A stretch of 32,000 nt of DNA, taken from an uncultured Sphingomonadaceae bacterium. GTDB taxonomy: Bacteria > Pseudomonadota > Alphaproteobacteria > Sphingomonadales > Sphingomonadaceae. Where the stretch lies: NCBI GenBank assembly GCA_963540925.1, contig CAUTRN010000021.1, positions 72,827 through 104,826 on the forward strand. Reading direction: 5' to 3'. Made by a program: the position numbers and the translations under genes. Shown one piece after another: positions 13,879 through 24,750 of the stretch (the stretch's first letter is position 1; every line of letters starts with the position of its first letter). The notes beneath the pieces were generated by a model. That model was not told where the DNA came from. It worked only from the letters and a program-made list of their open reading frames with translations, and did not search any database.

Positions 13879-14423
13879 GTCGAAGCTCCCTTGATCTTCG
13901 AAACCGCCCTATGCGGCCTCGATAGCGATCGACCGGCGCGAAACGGGCGTCTTGCACCTCCAAGGCCGCAGCGCAGCGGAGGACGGCAGAGCCGGGCATT
14001 TTGCTTCGCGAGGAAGCATGGCACATGCGGGGAAAAAGGCCGGTGGAGCCGTTGCGAGATGAGCCCGTACCGCGCCAGATCCGCGATGGGAGAGGCTGCG
14101 GGCGGTTTACGCGGAGCTGGGGCAGTTAATCAGATCGGTTCGGCATGCACATCAAGAGGTTCAAAGCTTTAGATTGGCAGGTGGGCGCGAAGACCGGACC
14201 GCGCTGAGGGCGCGCAGGTAGCTGCTCATCGAACTGGAATTGGCGGACGGCGAGCGATCCACATTTCGGTATCGCGATGGGGTAACTTCGAAAGCGGAAG
14301 ATTTGCCGTCATCAAACGGTCGCACGATTTCACGTTGATGCCGTGGCGCAATGTGATGGATTTCAATATCGGCAAGACGGTGTCCAGGATCATGCGGGCC
14401 AAAGGGCATTTTCTGGCAGTTCT

Positions 14424-14457
14424 GGCGGGTCGGGCGGGGCGGCGGGTCGGGCGGGGC
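14424..14457. repeat. perfect 17-bp tandem duplication GGCGGGTCGGGCGGGGC x2 (G-run rich)
   Basis: Read directly: 14424-14440 and 14441-14457 are identical. Lies about 190 nt upstream of the ATPase start. Confidence 0.95.
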
Positions 14458-14643
14458 CGGTGCTCAGATAGGCTCGACTGCAGTTCCTCGCCGTCGGCAT
14501 CGCGCGTGACGCGGCGAACAGATCGATGGCCGTCAAGACCATTTCGCAATAGTCATGTGCCGCGCTACACAGCGGGCACGGTACGATCATTTCTTCGTCA
14601 CGCCGGTCCCACAACTAGGATGTGGAGCACAAAGGGGGATGCA

Positions 14644-16203
14644 ATGCGGTTTGTGGTCAAGTTCCGCCAGGGTGAATCACCGACCACGAAACATTATCCC
14701 CATGCGGTCCTCGCACAGGATAATTGGGACGATTACGGCTACAAGACGACCTTCTACGTGAAGCTGCACCTCAGCTCGGACGAAGAGGTCGATCTTGGCA
14801 ACGTCAAAATTATCGAGGCGGCGCGGACCGGCGGCTATACTGAAATGCCCAAGAGTGCCTTTCAGCAACTGCCGGAGGGCTTCGGGTCGCTCGGCGCTGA
14901 ACTTGACTATTATGAAACGCTGCACCGCCTCGGCCGCGACATCTTCGCGCCCTTCCTAGAAGGGTTACGCGACGTCGCCTTCGACGACGAGGCCAAGGCG
15001 GCAGTCGAGGATTCGGAGGCCTATCGTGTCTCGCTGCTGCGGTTCGGTAACGCTGAACGCACCATATCCGATGCCGCCAAATTGCTGCGGGCGCGACGCC
15101 TGCCGATCAAGCGGCGTAGCGCCGGGTTCATCGTCAAGTTCAAGACCAAGGTCGCGCGCCGCGCGGCGTCGCTTCGCGCGGATTTCGATTTCCGCCGGGT
15201 TGGCCGTCTGCCAAACCGGATCATCGCGCTGATCGGCTATAATGGGACGGGCAAGACCCGGTTACTCTCTAACCTGGCGGTCGTCGCGAGCGGCTATGGC
15301 TATGACAGCAAGCAGGAGGCGCTGGAAAATGCCGCCGGGCGCTTCGTCGGCTCGCCGCCGCCATTCAAGACCGTCGTTGTGGTGTCGTACAGCGCCTTCG
15401 ACACCTTCGTGATCCCCGGACAGACGGCGGTCGAGAAACAGCGGCTCCAGGAAAGCGGTGAGCTCTTCGGCTATGTCTATTGCGGCCTGCGCGAACGGGC
15501 CGATGACGATGATGATGGCGAGCCCGCCTATCGCCTGCGAACGCCCGCCGAGATCAAGGAGGAGTTTCTGGCAGCGCTGCGGCGCGTCGTCGCAGCCGAC
15601 CGGCTTCCCGAGCTGATCGAAATCCTCACACCGCTGCTGCGCGATGCCTCGTTCCAGCGGATCGGCCTAACCCAGATTTTCGCCAACCGCGATGAGGATG
15701 ATGTCGCGGACCTGTTTCGCGACCTGAGCAGCGGCCACAAGGTCGTTCTAAAAATCTTGACCGAGCTGACCGCGCATATCGCGCGGTCGGGCCCGACCCT
15801 GGTACTGATTGACGAGCCCGAAACCCACCTTCATCCACCGCTCCTCGCCGCCTTTCTCAAGAGCGTGCGCCTCTGCCTAGAGACCTTTAACGGCTTTGCG
15901 ATAATCGCGACCCATTCTCCCGTCGTCTTGCAGGAGACGCCGGCGCGTTACGTCCGGGTGATGCGGCGGCAAGGCTCGGTAAACACGCTAGACGCCCCTA
16001 CAATCGAAACCTTCGCGGAGAATATCGGTGTCATCACGCAGGAGGTGTTCAACCTCAGCGATGGCGCCACCGACTGGCACGAAACCCTTGGATCGCTCGC
16101 CACCCAGAGCAGCCTCGAAGAGATCGAAGAGATGTTCGAGTCGAGGCTGGGCTTCGCCGCCCGCTCCTATGTGCTGAGCATTCAGGACGAGCGCGAGGAC
16201 TGA
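14644..16203 (+). CDS. ABC/AAA_15-21-type ATPase, Septu PtuA-like
   Basis: Walker A LIGYNGTGKTRLL, signature-like LSSGHKVVL, Walker B TLVLIDEPETHLHP, H-loop IIATHSP. About 200-aa N-terminal domain of unknown type (DNWDDYGYKTTFYVKL). Start at ATG 14644 after AAAGGGGGA; the track ORF from 14335 is probably an over-extension. Confidence 0.8.
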   Translation: MRFVVKFRQGESPTTKHYPHAVLAQDNWDDYGYKTTFYVKLHLSSDEEVDLGNVKIIEAARTGGYTEMPKSAFQQLPEGFGSLGAELDYYETLHRLGRDIFAPFLEGLRDVAFDDEAKAAVEDSEAYRVSLLRFGNAERTISDAAKLLRARRLPIKRRSAGFIVKFKTKVARRAASLRADFDFRRVGRLPNRIIALIGYNGTGKTRLLSNLAVVASGYGYDSKQEALENAAGRFVGSPPPFKTVVVVSYSAFDTFVIPGQTAVEKQRLQESGELFGYVYCGLRERADDDDDGEPAYRLRTPAEIKEEFLAALRRVVAADRLPELIEILTPLLRDASFQRIGLTQIFANRDEDDVADLFRDLSSGHKVVLKILTELTAHIARSGPTLVLIDEPETHLHPPLLAAFLKSVRLCLETFNGFAIIATHSPVVLQETPARYVRVMRRQGSVNTLDAPTIETFAENIGVITQEVFNLSDGATDWHETLGSLATQSSLEEIEEMFESRLGFAARSYVLSIQDERED

Positions 16204-16207
16204 TCCG

Positions 16208-17062
16208 ATGCGCATGATCCCGCTTCTCGCCGTCGACGCGACGGCCACATTCGACGCGATTGCCAAGGCGAAGCACCGGAAAACTCGCACCCACATGCGC
16301 GCTGCTCGGCCCGAGGTCATCGACGCCTATGACAGCTATGCGCAGGCCGCGCCCGAGGTCGCAGCGCTGGCCGCGCTCGACCTCACCAATGATCAGAAGA
16401 CCGCGATGCGACACGCCTTCACGGTTGAAACCGCGCCGATGCAGACCCTGCGCGGCGACCTGCTCGGCCGGCCGATCGTCTTTCGCTGTCCGTTCTGCGG
16501 GATCAGTGAATCCTCCACGCTCGATCATTATCTGCCCAAGGAGGATTATCCCGAGTTCGCGATCCTCCCGTTAAACCTGATCCCCAGCTGCGCTGTCTGC
16601 AACACGCTGAAACGCGATCGCATTCTCGTCGATGGCACCGACGTCCGCATGTTCCTGCACCCGTGTTACGACACGGTCCCGAACGAGGAATTTCTGTCCG
16701 TGCGCGCTCGGATCCAGGACGAGGCGCTCATCCTGTCCTACAGGATACGCCGCCCGGACGGCATGGCACAGCGCATCTTCCGTCACCTCCAGGCGCATTT
16801 CGACGTCCTCAACCTCGCCGACCGCTATCGCCGCATGGCGCTCGACCATCTGGGCGAATATTATCCGACGTTGAGGCGCACCTATGGCGAGGATGAGGAT
16901 GCCGGCCGCGTCGCCAATCTGCTGATCGAGGCGGCCTGCGATGCCGAGGAGGCCTCAGGGCCCAATTTCTGGCGCGCCAAGCTCTACCGAGCGCTAGCCG
17001 CGGACAATGCCTTCTGCGATGGCGGCTTCAGATTGGCGCAGCTGCAATATCGTCCCCTTTAG
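16208..17062 (+). CDS. HNH endonuclease, Septu PtuB-like
   Basis: FRCPFCGISESSTLDHYLPKEDYPEFAILPLNLIPSCAVCNTLKRDR carries the CxxC...DH...N...CxxCN HNH signature. Starts 4 nt after the ATPase stop. Confidence 0.8.
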   Translation: MRMIPLLAVDATATFDAIAKAKHRKTRTHMRAARPEVIDAYDSYAQAAPEVAALAALDLTNDQKTAMRHAFTVETAPMQTLRGDLLGRPIVFRCPFCGISESSTLDHYLPKEDYPEFAILPLNLIPSCAVCNTLKRDRILVDGTDVRMFLHPCYDTVPNEEFLSVRARIQDEALILSYRIRRPDGMAQRIFRHLQAHFDVLNLADRYRRMALDHLGEYYPTLRRTYGEDEDAGRVANLLIEAACDAEEASGPNFWRAKLYRALAADNAFCDGGFRLAQLQYRPL

Positions 17063-17097: not shown

Positions 17098-17301
17098 TCA
17101 GCGCACATTGCGCAGCGGTGCGTCGAGCCGCCTGCGGATCGTACGCCGGGCCCGCTCCAGATTGGCAAGGATCTGGCGGATGCGGCCCTGGGAAAGGCCG
17201 AACTCGCCCGCAAGCGCCTTGACCGGCGTGCCTGCGGCATGGGCCGTTTCGATCCGCAGATTGCGCGCCGCCTTCGACAAGATGTCCATCGATCCTCCCA
17301 T
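17098..17301 (-). CDS. small HTH protein (sigma-70 region 4.2-like)
   Basis: VKALAGEFGLSQGRIRQILANLERARRTIRRRL resembles the region 4.2 HTH. Lies 22 nt downstream of the helicase gene on the same strand; alternative start at 17289. Confidence 0.5.
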   Translation of the reverse strand: MGGSMDILSKAARNLRIETAHAAGTPVKALAGEFGLSQGRIRQILANLERARRTIRRRLDAPLRNVR

Positions 17302-17323: not shown

Positions 17324-18691
17324 CTAGCCCGCGAGCTGCACGGGCGCCGACGGCGTCAGGCCGAAGACTGCCGGGTACACGCGCTCCGCTCGTGCCAGCG
17401 ACGCCATCAAGGTCAGATGCGCGCGCCAACCACGATACTCCGGGTCATCGTCGATGCCGAGCGAACGGTCGCCGACCGGCGCGAACTGCATCAGCTGATG
17501 ACCGATCCCCTGCCGTCCGAAAATCCAGCATCCGATCCGGTGCCGCGACAGCATCACGCACAGCCGGCCGGCATCAAGATGAAAGGCGGTGGCATCCGCG
17601 CGCCCCGACAGCGGATGATGGACGAACATGAACGGCCGCTCGATCCCCTGAAACCGGTTGGCTGTCTCAACGAACACCTCCGCCAGATCCGGGCCCAGTC
17701 GTTCGCGCACGGCGTTGACCTGGCTGACATGTGCGCAGACCACGCCGATCATGTCGGGCGTGATCCATTCAGAGACGCCGTCATCGTGCATCCATGCGCT
17801 GCGCCCGAGCAGCCGCCTGATCGACGCCACCAGTTCCTGCGCGATCTCCCCATCGGCTTCGCCAGTGATCTGCGCCGGAAGTTCGACCATGACGATCGAC
17901 GACCCCGAAGCGACGGCATCGAGCGCCGCATCAAAGGGCATGATACCGTCAACCTGGAAATGGAGCGAGCGGTTCTGGCTCATCGCTCGAAATGGCATCG
18001 CGGGGTAGAAGGCGGGCTGGACTAGCCCGACTGTGTCCGCATTAAGCCGGCGCGATACGGGCAGATCGAGCTGGAGGACCGTCGGATGGCGCTCGACCAA
18101 GGCGGCGGGACACGCGACCTGAGGCCCTGCCGGATTGCAGCGCCACCGCTCGATCTCACAATTGACGAACGGATCGATCTGGCCCGGGTCGCCGATCAGC
18201 ACATGGCGCGGCGCAAGGTTGGAGATCAGCTGGAAGCGATAGTCGGGGAGCTGGAACGCCTCATCGACGATCTGGACGTCGAAGCACGGATATTCGCTTC
18301 GGATCCAAGACCATTTCGCGGCATTGCCGATTGTGATCGAGGGGTGCTGCGGCAGGCTTGCGACATCGTGAACCACCACTAGGTTCGCGAGGCCGGCGAC
18401 ATTGGCGGGAAGGTTGATCGTCTTCTTGGCGAACAAATAGATCGGCAGGCCGGCTGCGTTCGCGGCCAGACGGCGGGTCAGATCAAAGGCCTGTTCGTTG
18501 GTCTGCGTGACAACCATGCAGCGCTGGCCGAGCATCGTAGCGCTCTGCAGGGCGACGCGCTGGGCGACACCGGTCTTCCCCGCACCCGGCGGCGAGCGCA
18601 ACACCAACGCAGGCTCGCCTTGCCACTGGCTAGCGAGAACCCGCTCGAGCGCGGCGTCGGCGACGGCCTGCGGATCGAAGGGCGCGGTCAT
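17324..18691 (-). CDS. SF1 helicase, Upf1/Dna2-like (AAA_11/AAA_12 type)
   Basis: Walker A RSPPGAGKTG; Walker B QIVDEAFQL; motif III LIGDPGQIDP; motif V TANRFQGIERPFMFV; motif VI LCVMLSRHR. ATGA overlap with the upstream gene. Confidence 0.85.
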   Translation of the reverse strand: MTAPFDPQAVADAALERVLASQWQGEPALVLRSPPGAGKTGVAQRVALQSATMLGQRCMVVTQTNEQAFDLTRRLAANAAGLPIYLFAKKTINLPANVAGLANLVVVHDVASLPQHPSITIGNAAKWSWIRSEYPCFDVQIVDEAFQLPDYRFQLISNLAPRHVLIGDPGQIDPFVNCEIERWRCNPAGPQVACPAALVERHPTVLQLDLPVSRRLNADTVGLVQPAFYPAMPFRAMSQNRSLHFQVDGIMPFDAALDAVASGSSIVMVELPAQITGEADGEIAQELVASIRRLLGRSAWMHDDGVSEWITPDMIGVVCAHVSQVNAVRERLGPDLAEVFVETANRFQGIERPFMFVHHPLSGRADATAFHLDAGRLCVMLSRHRIGCWIFGRQGIGHQLMQFAPVGDRSLGIDDDPEYRGWRAHLTLMASLARAERVYPAVFGLTPSAPVQLAG

Positions 18692-20130
18692 GTCAGGCTT
18701 TCCACGGCGGCGAGCAGGTTGGCGGGCATCGGGCGCACGACAGGTGCCGCAGCCGGCATCGTGTCGCCATGCGTCCAGGGCTCGAACGTGAGCCGCTTCG
18801 CCATCTGCCCCAGCTCATTGCCGATGCCGCGCCAATCGGGGGCAGCCGGGCCGAAGTCGAGCGTCACGCCGCTCGTCATCTTCTTTATCGTATTTTTGCC
18901 CGTACCGATCATGGCGTTGATCCAGGTGAACGGCCCCCGCCGCTCGACCGACTCGATCCGGATCGACATTTTCGGATCGTCCAGCGTCCACAGAACATCG
19001 CCAGCGCGCAGGTGGAGGCTGTCCTGGTGGCTGGTCAGTTCGAGATGATATTCGAACAGCCGTGGCCGAACCCGCTCCTCAGCGATGACCGCGATTTGCG
19101 CGCGCAGTACGCTGCCGTTGACGACGCCCTTTTCGCGCGCCGCCCGATCGTGCCGAAGCATCCCGGCCTCGAAGTTCGTGACCGCATGTTCGCGCGCAAC
19201 GATCTTCATCGCGGCGGCCTTAGGCTTGTCGTGATAAGGCAGAAAATGCCCTTCGTCCCGGCTCGCCATGAAGTTCTCGAATTCGTCTGCTTCCTGCTGC
19301 GCTAGGCCGTCGAGCGAAGGGTTGGCCTGCCACCTCGGCACCGTCAGCAAGGCGATCGCCCGCTGAGTATTGGCGTAAATTGGCCGAAGTATGCCTTCGA
19401 GTAGCTGCTGGATGCGCGATCGATGATAGGCGATCACCGCAGCTGGCTGACTTGCCTTGCGGGCCGCGTGAAAGTCCTCGATCGCGGGTTGCAGGGTGCT
19501 GCGATCGAAGCGCGGATCGGTCTTCACCCCCATGGGCTGCGCCTCGGCGGCGGCGACCGCAGCGAAGATATCGCGCCCCGCCGGCGGCTCGATCCAAGTG
19601 AGCACCGAGCCGAGATGCTCGTCCTCGGCTTCCTGCTGTCCGGTCGCATAATGCGCGCGCAGCGCGGCGGTTGCGCTGATCAGCGCCTGCTGGCCGGCGA
19701 CCGGCGACCGCTCACCGGCATAGGTCCACAGCGTACCGAGGCGCTGGATATCGGGTTCGTCGGTGAACCTAAGGCGATCGGCCAGCGTGTCGAGATGCCC
19801 CAACGCCCCCGCCGAAGCGACCCAGATTTGGGGGAAGGTCGCAGCCGCGCGGCATTCCGCAAAATAGGCCTCGAACTGCGGAAGGAGCCAGCGCAGAAGG
19901 TCATATTGCTCATTGCGGTCGCGAGGGTCGGCGACGGTGTTGATCTGCGGCGCTTCGCCGAACCGGCCAATCGCAGCGGCATGGACCGATGTGTCCTCCC
20001 CGGCCATTGCGAGCAGGGTCAGGATGCGCGCGTGCGGTTGCACTATCACTTGGCGCTGCGAGACGATCGGGACCGCCTGGCCGGTTTGCAACGCGCGCAC
20101 CCGCGCGACGACATGGACGAGGTCACCCAT
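18688..20130 (-). CDS. hypothetical protein (~480 aa), no recognisable domain
   Basis: Long ORF with GC-rich third codon positions. The ATG at 20130 gives an ATGGGTGA 8-nt overlap with the upstream stop; ATG at 20163 is the alternative. Confidence 0.75.
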   Translation of the reverse strand: MGDLVHVVARVRALQTGQAVPIVSQRQVIVQPHARILTLLAMAGEDTSVHAAAIGRFGEAPQINTVADPRDRNEQYDLLRWLLPQFEAYFAECRAAATFPQIWVASAGALGHLDTLADRLRFTDEPDIQRLGTLWTYAGERSPVAGQQALISATAALRAHYATGQQEAEDEHLGSVLTWIEPPAGRDIFAAVAAAEAQPMGVKTDPRFDRSTLQPAIEDFHAARKASQPAAVIAYHRSRIQQLLEGILRPIYANTQRAIALLTVPRWQANPSLDGLAQQEADEFENFMASRDEGHFLPYHDKPKAAAMKIVAREHAVTNFEAGMLRHDRAAREKGVVNGSVLRAQIAVIAEERVRPRLFEYHLELTSHQDSLHLRAGDVLWTLDDPKMSIRIESVERRGPFTWINAMIGTGKNTIKKMTSGVTLDFGPAAPDWRGIGNELGQMAKRLTFEPWTHGDTMPAAAPVVRPMPANLLAAVESLT

Positions 20131-21229
20131 GCGCGATCCGATCCAGCAGGGCCGAGGCGGCACGAAGCTCGCTGGCGAGGCTCGCTTCGGCGGGATTGTC
20201 AGGGGGGCGCCCCTTGCCGTCGAGAAGATCGATCACGCGAGCGATCGAGCCCGCAGCCGCGAGTTGTTCAGCCGCCTGGTCGCCCAGAATGATCGGCAAA
20301 CCCGCGCTGAGCGCTTGGGCACGGCAATGTTCCCAGAGCGCGCAATGCTCCTTGCACCCCGATCGGTAGTTGTTCGGCAGCTGATCGATGACGGCGCGGT
20401 CCGCGAAGCTCGCGTCGGCCGGCAGAAGCCGCTCGACATCGTCAAGGTCAGCGGGCGCTGCTGACAACGCCCGGGTCAGAGACGCCAGTTCAGACTCGGC
20501 TCGATTCCGCGGGAAGAGCCGGGGAATGAAGGACCCCGGCGCGCGCAAGACCATATCGACGCGATCGCCCGCGATCAGCGGATCGCCGTCTCGGCTGGCG
20601 ATATGCTGCCCTAGGGCGAGCGTTCCGACAGCTGCCTGGCGCAGCGCGGCGCGGATATCCGACTTGTCGGTCTTTCCGCCACGATCGGCGAAGGATTTAA
20701 TGACGCCGACCCGGTAAAAGGGGTCGTCATCGCTCGCGACGAGATAGTCGAGTTCAATCGGGTGGGTGACGCCGACCAGCATCAATGGCAGACGAGGGTT
20801 GAGGATCAGATTGGGCGCGAGCGGATCGCCGCGAAGCTTCAGGTCAATGAGCCGCTGCGTTTCAAGCACACGCTGATGCCGCGCAAAGCTGCTGTCGCCG
20901 GGCGCATGGTTCGCAACCGCCGAGATCTTGATTTCTAGCTGGGTCAGCAGATGCTTCTCGCGATAGGCCGTCAGCAGCGACGCCCCGCCATTGTCAAGCA
21001 GCCGGCGTTCATAGGCTTGGCTCAGCGTCATCGCGAAGGGCGACATGACATCGGGCTGCATCCCGAACACATGCTCAATGATCTCGGCTGGAGTCAGCCC
21101 GGCGATGACGATCGCGCGTAAACGCACGCACCCGGTATTGCGCGCCACGCTCTCGATGCCGCGCGCGCCGACCTCGACAGGCTTGATGCCGCCGCGAAGG
21201 CGGGCAAGGCGCGCATTCGCTGGGGTCAC
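20123..21229 (-). CDS. hypothetical protein, putative Cas4/RecB-like PD-(D/E)XK nuclease with 4-Cys cluster (inference)
   Basis: One N-terminal Cys (NTGCVRL) plus a C-terminal CKEHCALWEHC (C-x3-C-x5-C). Candidate core HPIELDYLV ... RVGVIKSF. GTG start in a GTGA overlap with the upstream gene. Confidence 0.7.
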   Translation of the reverse strand: MTPANARLARLRGGIKPVEVGARGIESVARNTGCVRLRAIVIAGLTPAEIIEHVFGMQPDVMSPFAMTLSQAYERRLLDNGGASLLTAYREKHLLTQLEIKISAVANHAPGDSSFARHQRVLETQRLIDLKLRGDPLAPNLILNPRLPLMLVGVTHPIELDYLVASDDDPFYRVGVIKSFADRGGKTDKSDIRAALRQAAVGTLALGQHIASRDGDPLIAGDRVDMVLRAPGSFIPRLFPRNRAESELASLTRALSAAPADLDDVERLLPADASFADRAVIDQLPNNYRSGCKEHCALWEHCRAQALSAGLPIILGDQAAEQLAAAGSIARVIDLLDGKGRPPDNPAEASLASELRAASALLDRIAHG

Positions 21230-22086
21230 CGGATAGCTCTCTCGGCAATCTCGGTATCGATCATGAGCGGCCGGCCCCAGAGCCTGAACGCCGTGCTGCT
21301 GTTGCCGAGCCTCGCCACGGCCTCGCGGCGTTCGGCGAGATCGGCCTCGTCCAGCAGCGCGAGTTCTCCTTGCGCGGCCTCGATCACGCGCTTCGGATCA
21401 ATCGGCTGGCCGGTGTCATTAGCGCCTGGAATGGAGCGGGCGAAGGCAAAGAGCAGGCGCTCGATATTCTTAGCCTCTACGGCACCCACCTCGCGCAGTT
21501 GCGCAAGACGGTTGGCGAGGCTGATCGCAACCCGCAGATTGTCGGTCCGCATACTACGCGATCCGACGATCCGGCGCTCCAAGCTCCAGGTCGAGCTCGT
21601 CAGCAATCGCGGGATAGCCGTCAGCTGGGCAGCACTGATCGCGGGCACGATCCAGGCTGGACGTGCCGCAAGATTGCGCCGAGCCGCATTCTCCTCATCG
21701 CGCTTCAAACTGGCGAAACGCGACGGAGACGGGCGGTCGCCGGTAAGTGCTGCGGTTAAATCGGCAATCAACGCCGGAACGGACGGGACGCCCAGATCGT
21801 CAAGCGCATCGAGCGCGACTTCGCGCAGCGGCTTGTTCGGCTTACGCGAACGCGGCGTTGCAATGTCCCGCGCTTCGAGCTCGCTGAACCGCAGCGCATC
21901 GGACAAGCGCTGATACTCGGCATGGAGCTCGGCGATCCTCGCCTGTGCGCGATCACGTCGCGCTTGGTCCCCGGATGCCAAAGACTTGGTGAGCTCGGCA
22001 TAAGCATCCTGCTGGCGCTTGGCATTGCGTGCGAGCTGGTCGGCAAGGGGAAGGGCACGGGACATACCCGCTGTATAGCGTTCCAC
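21226..22086 (-). CDS. hypothetical protein (286 aa), N-terminal coiled-coil-like region
   Basis: Charged helical N-terminus QQDAYAELTKSLASGDQARRDRAQARIAELHAEYQRLSDAL; no catalytic motif seen. GTG start at 22086, alternative ATG at 22065. Confidence 0.65.
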   Translation of the reverse strand: MERYTAGMSRALPLADQLARNAKRQQDAYAELTKSLASGDQARRDRAQARIAELHAEYQRLSDALRFSELEARDIATPRSRKPNKPLREVALDALDDLGVPSVPALIADLTAALTGDRPSPSRFASLKRDEENAARRNLAARPAWIVPAISAAQLTAIPRLLTSSTWSLERRIVGSRSMRTDNLRVAISLANRLAQLREVGAVEAKNIERLLFAFARSIPGANDTGQPIDPKRVIEAAQGELALLDEADLAERREAVARLGNSSTAFRLWGRPLMIDTEIAERAIR

Positions 22087-22189: not shown

Positions 22190-23494
22190 TTACTTGGCGA
22201 AGCAGAGTACCGATTCGGTCGCCCCAGACGGGCGGTCATAGGACAGCCGGCCGCGATGGATGTCGGACATCGAGCGGAGGTGGAAATCCTTGCGCTGCTT
22301 AAGGTGCAAGCCGTGCGCAGCGCCAATCTCCGAGATGATCCTCGGCAGATCATTATGCAGTTCCTTATAATAGGAATCCTGCACGACCAAGATCGCGCGC
22401 CCACGCGGCTTGAGCGCACCGGCGAGACGCTCGATCGAGCGGTTCATCTTGTCATAATAGTCGAGATGGGTTCGGTAATAATATCCTCCGGATGCTTTCG
22501 ACGGATGGGCCTTCAGCTTCTCCAGAAAGGCAGCGCAGCTTTTGCCCCACGCCTGATCCACCTCAATCGTCTCGCTGGGCACCTGGGTCGTACCGATCAT
22601 CTGCTTGCCCAGCGCCCGCGCGCCACTGCTCAGCAGCGGCCCGAGCACTGCCAGTTCGATACGGGTCGCGGCGGTATAGTCGATCCGCGTGCAGTAAGGC
22701 GGCGACGTCAGCGCGAGATCTATGCTCTCGTTGTCGAGCGTCATTGTAGCCGTATCGGAAAGCAGGATTTTTGAATCGCCAATGCGCGGCGCATTGACGA
22801 GCAGCCGGTCCGCCACGCGCTTCAGCGCGAGCGCTGCCGACATGCCGCGCACATTGTCGCCGAACGACCGTGCGACAAGGATCTGTGCCGCAGCCACGCG
22901 CGCCTCGTCCTTCTTGGGCTGGCGCAACCATGTCGGGTTCGAGGACTGGAAGCGCACGACGAGTTTACGACAGGCGGCGAAGAGCGCGACATAGAGCGTC
23001 GCGGCGGTGCCCGAGATCTTGTCGAGGTGCACACCGTCAGGGGACTTGGTCATACTGCCGACGAGACTGCGGCGGATATTCTGTTCGATGCCACGGATAA
23101 AACTGGCCGTCGGCGGATCGAACCATCCAAGCAGTGCATCGTCGGGCAACAACCTCGGGGGCGTCGAATGCGCATGCGACAGGATCGTCGCGGCGAGCGG
23201 GCGGAGATGGTCCGCTTCGCTTGGCGGAAGAAGGCGGGCACGCGCTACGATGATCATTACCGGATTGAGGTCAATGCCGACCGCGTTCAGGCCCAGGGTG
23301 TTCGCCGTATAGGTGGTCGTGCCGCTGCCATTCCAAGGATCGAGAATAGTTGCGCCGCGCGGTAGCTTAGCGCTCTGCAGCAATTCGCGCGCGAACAACT
23401 CCGGAAACCCGGCATAATAAGGGAAAAAACCCTCCCAGCCGGTCTGCAAGCGCTTGTTTCGTTTCGGCGAGTTTATGCGGAATCTGGCTGCCAT
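22190..23494 (-). CDS. DNA methyltransferase (N6-adenine or N4-cytosine; motif order I then IV)
   Basis: SAM-binding motif ILDPWNGSGTT near the N-terminus. Catalytic LTSPPYCTRIDY about 200 aa later. C-terminal LKPRGRAILVVQDSYY is typical of N4/N6 MTases. Confidence 0.85.
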   Translation of the reverse strand: MAARFRINSPKRNKRLQTGWEGFFPYYAGFPELFARELLQSAKLPRGATILDPWNGSGTTTYTANTLGLNAVGIDLNPVMIIVARARLLPPSEADHLRPLAATILSHAHSTPPRLLPDDALLGWFDPPTASFIRGIEQNIRRSLVGSMTKSPDGVHLDKISGTAATLYVALFAACRKLVVRFQSSNPTWLRQPKKDEARVAAAQILVARSFGDNVRGMSAALALKRVADRLLVNAPRIGDSKILLSDTATMTLDNESIDLALTSPPYCTRIDYTAATRIELAVLGPLLSSGARALGKQMIGTTQVPSETIEVDQAWGKSCAAFLEKLKAHPSKASGGYYYRTHLDYYDKMNRSIERLAGALKPRGRAILVVQDSYYKELHNDLPRIISEIGAAHGLHLKQRKDFHLRSMSDIHRGRLSYDRPSGATESVLCFAK

Positions 23495-23539
23495 CTGGCA
23501 AGTTCTACTCCAAAGGCCGGTCGCATGGCGAGCCCATCG

Positions 23540-24133
23540 TCAGGCGAACCCGCGCTTGCGACGGACGGTAATGGCCAGACGCGTGATTTCGGCCGGCAAC
23601 ATGGCGGATTGCACCAGCGCGATCGGCGGCGGGCTCGACAGGGTCGAGAATGCTCGATCATAGATGGCGACGCAGCCGCCCGTCGTCAGCCGTGAATCAA
23701 AGAGGATGCCGTCGATATCGGGCATCTGGTCGTGGACTGCTTCGGAGAAGGCCTGGCCCTGGCCATGATCGCGCGCGCGACTGGCATCGGTGTGGATCCC
23801 CAACTCATAGGCGGCCGCCCCGGTTAGATCGAGCAATGCCAGCTCCCGACCAGAACTAATCGACGCGACGCAGAGCTGTTCCAGGTGTGGCCGATACAGG
23901 AAGCGACGCTCGCGGCCTTCGAACCGATCGCGGACGACCGCTTCGGCGAAGGCGGTAGAAAAGCTGTCCGCGGTATAGAGCACGCGAAAGATGCGGGACG
24001 GGCTTGAGAAGCGGCTCGACCCAAAACCTGCGTCGGTAGGGGTGGCGCGATGCTGGCTCGGCATGATACGGGGCCAGTCTGCAATCCTTGCGCGGACTAC
24101 CCGTTGGCCCAGATGGGACAGAACGATTTTCAC
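23540..24133 (-). CDS. RES domain toxin (ParT/MbcT-like)
   Basis: R-E-S signature residues in GSSRFSSP, TAFAEAVV and GILFDSRLTTG. GTG start in a GTGA overlap with the antitoxin stop. Confidence 0.85.
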   Translation of the reverse strand: MKIVLSHLGQRVVRARIADWPRIMPSQHRATPTDAGFGSSRFSSPSRIFRVLYTADSFSTAFAEAVVRDRFEGRERRFLYRPHLEQLCVASISSGRELALLDLTGAAAYELGIHTDASRARDHGQGQAFSEAVHDQMPDIDGILFDSRLTTGGCVAIYDRAFSTLSSPPPIALVQSAMLPAEITRLAITVRRKRGFA

Positions 24134-24750
24134 GCGTAGTCAAACGCCCCTTCCGCAGCACCCGTGACCGCCGCCACCTCACCATCGCGCAAGGCGTCGA
24201 TGGGCGGCTTGCCATGGGTCATCCGGTTCGGAGCGACGAGCCACTCCCAAAGCTCCTCGGCCGAGGGGAAGAAAGTCGCGACGACATCGAGGCCCGGCAC
24301 CGGGCGGCGGCGATCAAATTGCCGGACGGGATAGACATAGTTGCGCAGCCCCTTGCGCAGCGCGACAATCCTGTGCGCCTTGCGCCAATTATCCAGCGTG
24401 CCACGCGAAATGCTGAGGCGCTCTACCAGATCGCCCGCACCGAGCAGCTCGCTCTCGACCCAATCGGCGGAATCGTCCGCAACGGTGATCGCGTCGAGGA
24501 GCCTGCTCCCTTCGCCAGCCGACACAACCGGCCCGACGCCTCCACCTTGCAGAACCTTCTCGGGCTGGGCCGGGATGCGCGCTGGCGCCTGCCGCTTGTG
24601 CGTGCGAACGGATTTCGCGGCGGCTGGTATCGGCACCTTCAGCGCCGTGGCAAGGTCAAGGAGCCCCGCCAAGTCCATGCGCTCGACTTTGCTTTCGATC
24701 GCCTTTGCCAAAGCGAGCCTAGCCGGATGCGCTTGCTTCATAGAAGTCAT
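24130..24750 (-). CDS. Xre/ParS/MbcA-like antitoxin (C-terminal DUF2384) with internal MerR-like HTH
   Basis: C-terminus WLVAPNRMTHGKPPIDALRDGEVAAVTGAAEGAFDY is DUF2384-like. HTH region AGDLVERLSISRGTLDNWRKAHRIVALR. SD AAGGAAGGA upstream of the ATG. Confidence 0.8.
   Translation of the reverse strand: MTSMKQAHPARLALAKAIESKVERMDLAGLLDLATALKVPIPAAAKSVRTHKRQAPARIPAQPEKVLQGGGVGPVVSAGEGSRLLDAITVADDSADWVESELLGAGDLVERLSISRGTLDNWRKAHRIVALRKGLRNYVYPVRQFDRRRPVPGLDVVATFFPSAEELWEWLVAPNRMTHGKPPIDALRDGEVAAVTGAAEGAFDYA

Follow-up and report, generated by a model that had tools for sequence, protein, structure and literature searches.

The window analysed here is a stretch of 32,000 nucleotides (nt) of DNA from an uncultured Sphingomonadaceae bacterium (GenBank assembly GCA_963540925.1, contig CAUTRN010000021.1, positions 72,827 to 104,826). 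On its minus strand, at 20123–21229, it encodes a protein of 368 amino acids (aa), B368, whose family forms a branch of the Cas4/AddB/Dna2/EXO5-type PD-(D/E)XK nucleases that had not been annotated before. Our overall reading is that B368 belongs to the iron-sulfur (Fe-S) branch of these proteins, that it is one subunit of a four-gene module (genes A, B, C and D), and that the copy in the window is probably catalytically impaired or dead; we hold this combination to be slightly better than an even bet. The gene, taken from the list of open reading frames (ORFs) and a reading of the strand, has a GTG start that shares 4 nt (GTGA) with the stop of the upstream 286-aa gene, and its 3' end runs 8 nt (ATGGGTGA) into the next gene downstream, counted from that gene's true ATG. 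A preliminary description had placed one cysteine near the N terminus of this protein and three about 260 aa later, after a candidate nuclease core. That arrangement is borne out, and the strings it quoted are all present in the minus-strand ORF: NTGCVRLRAIV holds C34, CKEHCALWEHC holds C292, C296 and C302, and HPIELDYLV and RVGVIKSF are residues 156–164 and 173–180.

The predicted core of B368 is a restriction-endonuclease-like PD-(D/E)XK core. An alignment-based AlphaFold2 (AF2) model (predicted local distance difference test, pLDDT, 86.7; predicted template modelling score, pTM, 0.79) has an alpha-beta-beta-beta-alpha-beta core, which runs through helix 64–79 with E74, strands 146–151, 154–159/162–164 (D161) and 173–178 (position 176 and K178), helix 189–212 with Q198, and strands 223–229 and 236–243. 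In this model C34 precedes the core and the cysteine triad comes after it. When the model was compared with the PDB by Foldseek, RecB-like nucleases (EXO5, RecE, AdnAB, Cas4 SSO0001 and MGME1) held 16 of the 17 best places, the sole exception being the DinG helicase at rank 3, and lambda exonuclease, Cas4-Cas1-Cas2, AddB and RecB appeared at lower ranks. The top match was EXO5 (7lw7; E 1.6e-3, probability 1.0), with all other E-values against the PDB weaker. Against BFVD there were 27 matches at E<=1e-3, the named ones being nearly all PD-(D/E)XK, RecB-like, RecE, DUF83 or MGME1 proteins. The restriction-endonuclease-like fold suspected in the preliminary description thus finds support both in the model and in its RecB/Cas4/EXO5-type matches. 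The best structural matches, human EXO5 (7lw7) and the AddB/AdnAB nuclease domains (E 1.6e-3 to 5e-3, probability 0.97–1.0), differ from B368 in sequence, with 8–17% identity, and AddB is fused to a helicase-like body. Both EXO5 and the nuclease domain of Bacillus-type AddB have a four-cysteine Fe-S cluster, and both work at the ends of single-stranded DNA.

When the family profile was aligned by hhalign with 19 Cas4 sequences drawn from genomes, D161 fell on the Cas4 aspartate, E176-x-K178 on E-Y-K, Q198 on the glutamine and the cysteine triad on CxxCx5C. Like Cas4 (SSO0001, PDB 4ic1; PF01930), B368 combines a RecB-like PD-(D/E)XK fold with one N-terminal and three C-terminal cysteines, and the D, ExK and Q motifs follow one another in its family consensus as they do in Cas4. 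B368 exceeds Cas4 in length by about 150 aa and has additional helical parts, an insert after C34 and a C-terminal tail of about 65 aa; its triad has x3/x5 rather than x2/x5 spacing, it has no Pfam match, and the window copy lacks the glutamate of ExK. It also differs from CRISPR-associated Cas4 in context, since its neighbours are a DNA methyltransferase, A, C and a helicase rather than cas1/cas2 and a CRISPR array. Against AddB nuclease domains from Alphaproteobacteria, hhalign gave no significant match (P 0.2); AddB of the same lineage is a poor comparator because it lacks the cysteine triad. The AddB of this genome (G000:C55, L037) and those of its relatives (L030–L041) have no C-terminal cysteine triad, and no RecB-like domain with a four-cysteine staple other than B368 was found in this analysis. 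Three results on fold and family count against our reading: the Foldseek TM-scores are low (0.17–0.45), partly owing to the extra helical parts; the hhalign match to Cas4 is statistically weak (P 0.006–0.015, probability 3–7%); and in a Pfam scan PDDEXK_1 was touched by just 2 of 42 members, with a best E of 0.0065.

The family is sizeable and had gone unnamed in every curated library searched. A word-indexed search gave 128 clusters, every one labelled hypothetical, and an exhaustive HMMER search of 1.84 billion representatives (E<=1e-3) defined 407 clusters at 50% identity. B368 itself had no match among the Pfam, NCBIfam, PADLOC and PHROG models; its Pfam scan was empty, so that it falls outside the sequence models PF01930 and PF12705, and sequence searches of the PDB by phmmer and with a profile gave matches at chance level only. 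The preliminary description had suggested a divergent or new nuclease family with non-canonical core acid and lysine residues. The family is indeed unannotated in these four libraries, and the window copy, with V176, is non-canonical; the family as a whole, however, has the canonical Cas4-type motif set (D161, E176-x-K178, Q198).

Conservation was followed in an alignment of 30 sequences (down to 48% identity) and one of 42 sequences (down to 22% identity), and residues were counted over 217 full-length family members. B368 contains exactly four cysteines, spaced C-x257-C-x3-C-x5-C: the C34 codon lies at 21128–21130 and the C292-x3-C296-x5-C302 codons at 20324–20356, both on the minus strand. 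All four are invariant in the 30-sequence alignment. In the 42-sequence alignment C34, D161, C296 and C302 are invariant, and C292, E176, K178, Q198 and E74 are each conserved in at least 90%. Across the full-length members, down to 22% identity, each staple cysteine is kept in 213 or 214 of the 217 (C34 in 214), a conservation far beyond chance, which agrees with the preliminary description, whose reading cysteines that vary among homologues would have refuted. The difference from Cas4 spacing that it had pointed out also stands for most of the family, with C-x3-C-x5-C in 207 of the 217, although five members have the canonical C-x2-C-x5-C. The x3/x5 triad is a distinctive signature of the B368 family within the Cas4/AddB/Dna2/EXO5 Fe-S nuclease group.

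A bracket of one plus three cysteines around a RecB-like core is the Fe-S arrangement of Cas4, AddB, Dna2 and EXO5. By this likeness, the four cysteines of B368, one before and three after the core, most likely staple the domain and hold an Fe-S cluster. They might instead bind a structural zinc ion or form disulfides, and the x3/x5 spacing, which departs from the x2/x5 of Cas4, AddB and Dna2, leaves some room for this. We nevertheless consider zinc or disulfides quite improbable, given that the bracket itself is the known Fe-S arrangement, that x2/x5 spacing occurs in five family members, that the best structural match, EXO5, is an Fe-S enzyme, and that a four-cysteine Fe-S module is described for all Cas4 family members (PMC5704561). 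Beyond the triad, the helical tail is conserved as well (B368 residues ~310–368, 20123–20300, minus strand; LGDxAAExLAAAGSIxRA...), and by eye it resembles a helix-hairpin-helix DNA-binding motif, with no Pfam match.

The active site divides the family into two groups, one of 138 diverged members with an acid at position 176 and one a clade of 73 members that includes the window copy. In the acid-176 group just 3% of columns are at least 95% conserved, and the ten best-conserved columns are D161, Q198, K178, C292, C296, C34, C302, E74, S63 and E176, with D161 the most conserved of all. Read from its residues, this pattern is the signature of an active Fe-S nuclease with the canonical Cas4/RecB motif set. 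Over all 217 members, the residue counts at position 176 are 132 E, 72 V, 6 D, 5 T and 2 A, and K178 is kept in 214. In the 73-member clade, by contrast, position 176 is V, T or A, and 71 of the sequences have E at position 198. Just 51% of the clade keeps an aspartate at position 161, the rest having A, N, P, G, L or S there (entropy rank 300 of 368), and E74 falls to 89%, with the cysteines and K178 invariant and 37% of all columns at least 95% conserved. The D161A and D161N variants sit in intact five-gene operons of isolates and of metagenome-assembled genomes. A FastTree phylogeny shows four independent losses of the acid at 176. All 73 sequences with E198 lack that acid, and E198 emerged in three of these four lineages. 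These substitutions can be read in two ways, either as relaxation after catalysis was lost or as a shift of the acid from strand to helix.

Both glutamates, E176 and E198, are missing from the window copy. It carries D161 (codon at 20747–20749, minus strand), V176-I177-K178 in place of the (D/E)xK motif, with valine for the canonical glutamate (20696–20704, minus strand), and Q198 (codon CAG at 20636–20638, minus strand), in the helix equivalent to that of the QxxxY motif, where nearly all close relatives have E. Set against the motif II and III residues D161 and E176-x-K178 of the family consensus, the window protein lacks the glutamate. Its residue state recurs only in the P0114–P0118 clade and in P0013. 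Q198 of the window copy is accompanied by G at position 202; Y202 is present in 24 of the 217 members, the Streptomyces proteins have Q198-x3-Y202, and QxxxY is thus seen in distant members. The catalytic competence of the window copy is doubtful because E176 is lost, D161 is relaxed in its clade and the Q198E change is absent, and for the same replacement of E176 and relaxation of D161 the proposal in the preliminary description that B368 supplies the effector of the gene cluster becomes doubtful for this copy.

The opposite case is that B368 is an active nuclease with a rewired site, built from E159/D161 and K178 in the window copy and from E159/E198 and K178 in its relatives, and that it is the DNA-cutting effector of a helicase-driven restriction system guarded by a methyltransferase. 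For this speak a fold and a cysteine staple like those of active Cas4, EXO5 and AddB, the retention of D161 in five of the six V176/Q198 sequences, and a setting in which a methyltransferase adjoins genes that, in library scans of A-B-C-D, hold no other recognisable nuclease. Three points bear directly against inactivation: K178 and E159 are still conserved in the clade; the appearance of E198 in three of four E176-loss lineages, and never elsewhere, looks like a compensatory relocation of the acid, by which the clade may be active; and the P0114–P0118 clade stably keeps the combination of V176, Q198 and D161. However, the window copy lacks both E176 and E198, D161 falls in the most variable fifth of clade columns with E74 relaxed too, and the conservation of E198 is unremarkable in a clade where so many columns are nearly fixed. 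Alanine substitutions of motif II and III residues abolish activity in characterised Cas4, AddB and RecB enzymes. We therefore regard a rewired, DNA-cutting B368 as a tentative alternative, clearly short of even chances, and put the prospect that the window copy is an active nuclease at roughly that same level, a real but minor one.

A catalytically impaired window copy, the reading that we prefer, would have precedents in proteins that keep the RecB/Cas4 fold without catalysis and use it as a DNA channel or binding part, namely the C-terminal domain of RecC and a protein of TTV1. RecC is not known to carry an Fe-S cluster. B368 differs from both precedents in keeping the Fe-S cysteines and the motif III lysine, and its inactivation is one that we infer. 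The TTV1 protein is a nucleocapsid Cas4-like protein described as an inactivated Cas4 relative (PMC5704561). For annotation, the fold alone is no ground for calling the window copy an active nuclease. More broadly, the repeated replacement of the motif III glutamate, usually accompanied by Glu198, is a natural experiment in active-site plasticity or in the formation of pseudo-enzymes.

B368 is encoded within a run of minus-strand genes in the window: Xre, RES, methyltransferase, A (286 aa), B (368), C (480) and D (455). The four module genes overlap by 4–8 nt. A286 (21226–22086, minus strand), which always lies directly upstream of B368, has a coiled-coil N terminus and an Arg-rich conserved C-terminal domain, and gave no match against the family libraries. 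C480 (18688–20130, minus strand) has, in its AF2 model (pLDDT 81.5), an N-terminal alpha/beta domain, a helical region with long helices (206–338) and a C-terminal beta-barrel (342–427). The maximal ORF for this gene spans 491 aa (18688–20163), but probably starts at its 12th codon, the ATG at 20130, as its orthologues do; the gene is taken as about 480 aa because the end of B368 overlaps this ATG by 8 nt, as in orthologous loci. D455 (17324–18691, minus strand) is a bare superfamily 1B (SF1B), Upf1/Dna2-like helicase core, with Pfam matches to AAA_12 (1e-8) and AAA_19 and a weak one to AAA_11; its profile matches Aquarius and DNA2 in the PDB, and its Streptomyces orthologue matches AAA_11 at 3e-10.

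The order of genes B, C and D is that of the domains of Dna2, and for this reason we propose that the module is a split Dna2-like helicase-nuclease; by this analogy A-B-C-D looks like a Dna2-type machine divided into subunits. Both the module and Dna2 (PDB 5eaw) combine a RecB-like nuclease with an SF1B Upf1-like helicase, the nuclease being an Fe-S one in Dna2 and putatively so here, and the Dna2 domains are collinear with B (nuclease), C (possible stalk and barrel) and D (helicase). Unlike Dna2, the module is bacterial, resides on mobile elements, often with a methyltransferase, and is made of three separate polypeptides and a fourth, A, rather than one chain; at every locus examined, the nuclease, C and the helicase are each encoded by a gene of their own, and the three genes overlap. 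In addition, the matches of C and D to Dna2 are statistically weak. The best Foldseek match of C480 is Sen1/SETX (E ~0.02, probability 1.0, ~150 columns), with Dna2 at rank 20, and a stalk/barrel assignment drawn from an alignment at this E-value and of this length is a weak point of the proposal. With its fixed set of four genes and minimal SF1B helicase, the module would offer a tractable bacterial model of a subunit-split Dna2-like machine.

The N-terminal alpha/beta domain of C480 (residues ~20–200) consists of three strands, a helix and a strand, followed by helices, and its invariant residues are E45, D46, D68, E87, H112, D114, D118, E140 and H172. The module may have a second catalytic domain here.

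If the module works as its parts suggest, A would contribute a coiled coil, B an Fe-S nuclease fold, C possibly a stalk and beta-barrel accessory, and D a minimal SF1B helicase that would translocate on single-stranded DNA and feed the strand to, or through, the Fe-S domain of B. In Proteobacteria the adjacent methyltransferase may often mark self DNA. In ancestral or E176-type members B would be the cutting subunit; in the clade of the window it is probably kept as an Fe-S subunit for DNA binding or threading, and not as the effector.

Of the 29 proteobacterial loci fetched, 24 contain all four module genes, and the remaining five are contig ends or carry a broken copy. A-B-C-D is also present in three Streptomyces plasmids (hidden Markov model E 1e-37 to 1e-91) and in further metagenome contigs, and in the distant branch L063 A lies upstream and C downstream of B. 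The family is rare: of 401 genomes sampled from the phylum one carries it, a profile search of 400 such genomes yielded no further copy, a phage collection held no family member, and a metagenome scan returned three short contigs only. The whole genome from which the window derives has no PF01930 match, and no named system with the A-B-C-D gene set was found in the literature.

In the window, the module run is cargo of an integrative and conjugative element (ICE) and stands next to a Septu-like PtuA/PtuB pair. Elsewhere its neighbours include AbiEii, GmrSD, HEPN, a Gabija-like OLD-TOPRIM and UvrD pair, Wadjet, toxins of toxin-antitoxin systems, and a ResIII helicase next to a weak match to a restriction endonuclease. 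A DNA methyltransferase (N6_N4_Mtase; 22190–23494, minus strand, in the window) is a frequent but optional partner, usual beside the module in Proteobacteria and absent from that place in the three Streptomyces plasmids and in L069. An obligatory restriction-modification system was rejected on the basis of these loci without an adjoining methyltransferase. The module resembles the helicase-nuclease restriction-modification systems (Type III Res/Mod; UvrD-Cas4 fusions), in which, too, defence islands hold a DNA methyltransferase beside a helicase and a Cas4-like nuclease. It differs from them in that its helicase is of SF1B rather than superfamily 2 (SF2) Res or UvrD type, its nuclease is a separate protein, two extra conserved proteins (A and C) are present, and some lineages do without the methyltransferase. 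Fusions of UvrD and Cas4 beside Mod/Res have been described, as have other Cas4-like nucleases associated in defence settings with UvrD or YprA helicases, with no SF1B arrangement among them (PMC5704561). The module is a candidate new defence system of ICEs and plasmids.

The same mobile elements bring in another possibility, that A-B-C-D processes DNA ends or promotes recombination for its carrier, for example in end resection with SbcCD or in ICE and plasmid maintenance, rather than serving immunity. The carriage of the module on ICEs and plasmids fits this, as do its nearest folds (EXO5, Dna2, AddB, RecE and MGME1), all of them repair or recombination enzymes, and the Streptomyces plasmids L066, L067 and L068 (NZ_CP108489, NZ_CP027023 and NZ_CP060826), in which the module has no methyltransferase. 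In L066 and L068 it adjoins a divergent SbcCD pair, with only fragments of such genes upstream in L067, and in L066 and L067 a Wadjet-like operon of DUF3375, DUF4194 and an SMC-type ATPase comes after the module. Yet these three plasmids may be related, in which case the SbcCD link is possibly a single event. Such a role in the service of the element is also hard to square with defence-gene neighbours in unrelated contexts, with the usual pairing with a DNA methyltransferase in Proteobacteria and with the rare, patchy occurrence of the family, and we judge it unlikely.

The gene before the methyltransferase varies between loci: it is Xre-RES, PIN with a divergent HTH_17, an AAA_16 STAND/BrxC-like ATPase, Fic, or nothing (window 22190–24750, L001, L002, L019, L022, L023, L026, L070 and L071). 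In the window it is an Xre-type antitoxin and RES toxin pair (23540–24750, minus strand; Pfam RES 9e-22, Xre-MbcA-ParS_M), and all 17 complete loci of the clade to which the window copy belongs have Xre-RES, including those with an inverted Xre-RES-methyltransferase block. The RES and PIN lineages are the two large lineages without E176 in B. A strict rule by which gain of a toxin entails loss of the catalytic acid was considered and rejected: RES and PIN loci have V176, and the Fic locus L026 keeps E176. On a further reading, A-B-C-D is an undescribed defence system, a split Dna2-like helicase-nuclease beside a methyltransferase slot with a swappable gene (RES-Xre, PIN, Fic, a STAND-like ATPase or none, usually preceding the methyltransferase), in which the independent loss of E176 in the RES and PIN lineages would suggest a shift from cutting invader DNA to Fe-S sensing and toxin triggering. 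Taken in full, this scheme has in our view only a small chance of being right.

Two smaller observations concern the flanks of the module. Past the helicase, a 67-aa ORF (17098–17301, minus strand) has its sole match in L004, the closest locus (73% over 44 aa), and because its match is limited to that locus it is not counted in the conserved module. Beyond it, the PtuA/PtuB pair of the window lies on the plus strand at 14335–17062 (PADLOC PDC-M01A/B, E 5e-138 and 7e-57), and distant PtuA/PtuB-like genes stand beside the module in three loci of another clade (L001, L022 and L023).

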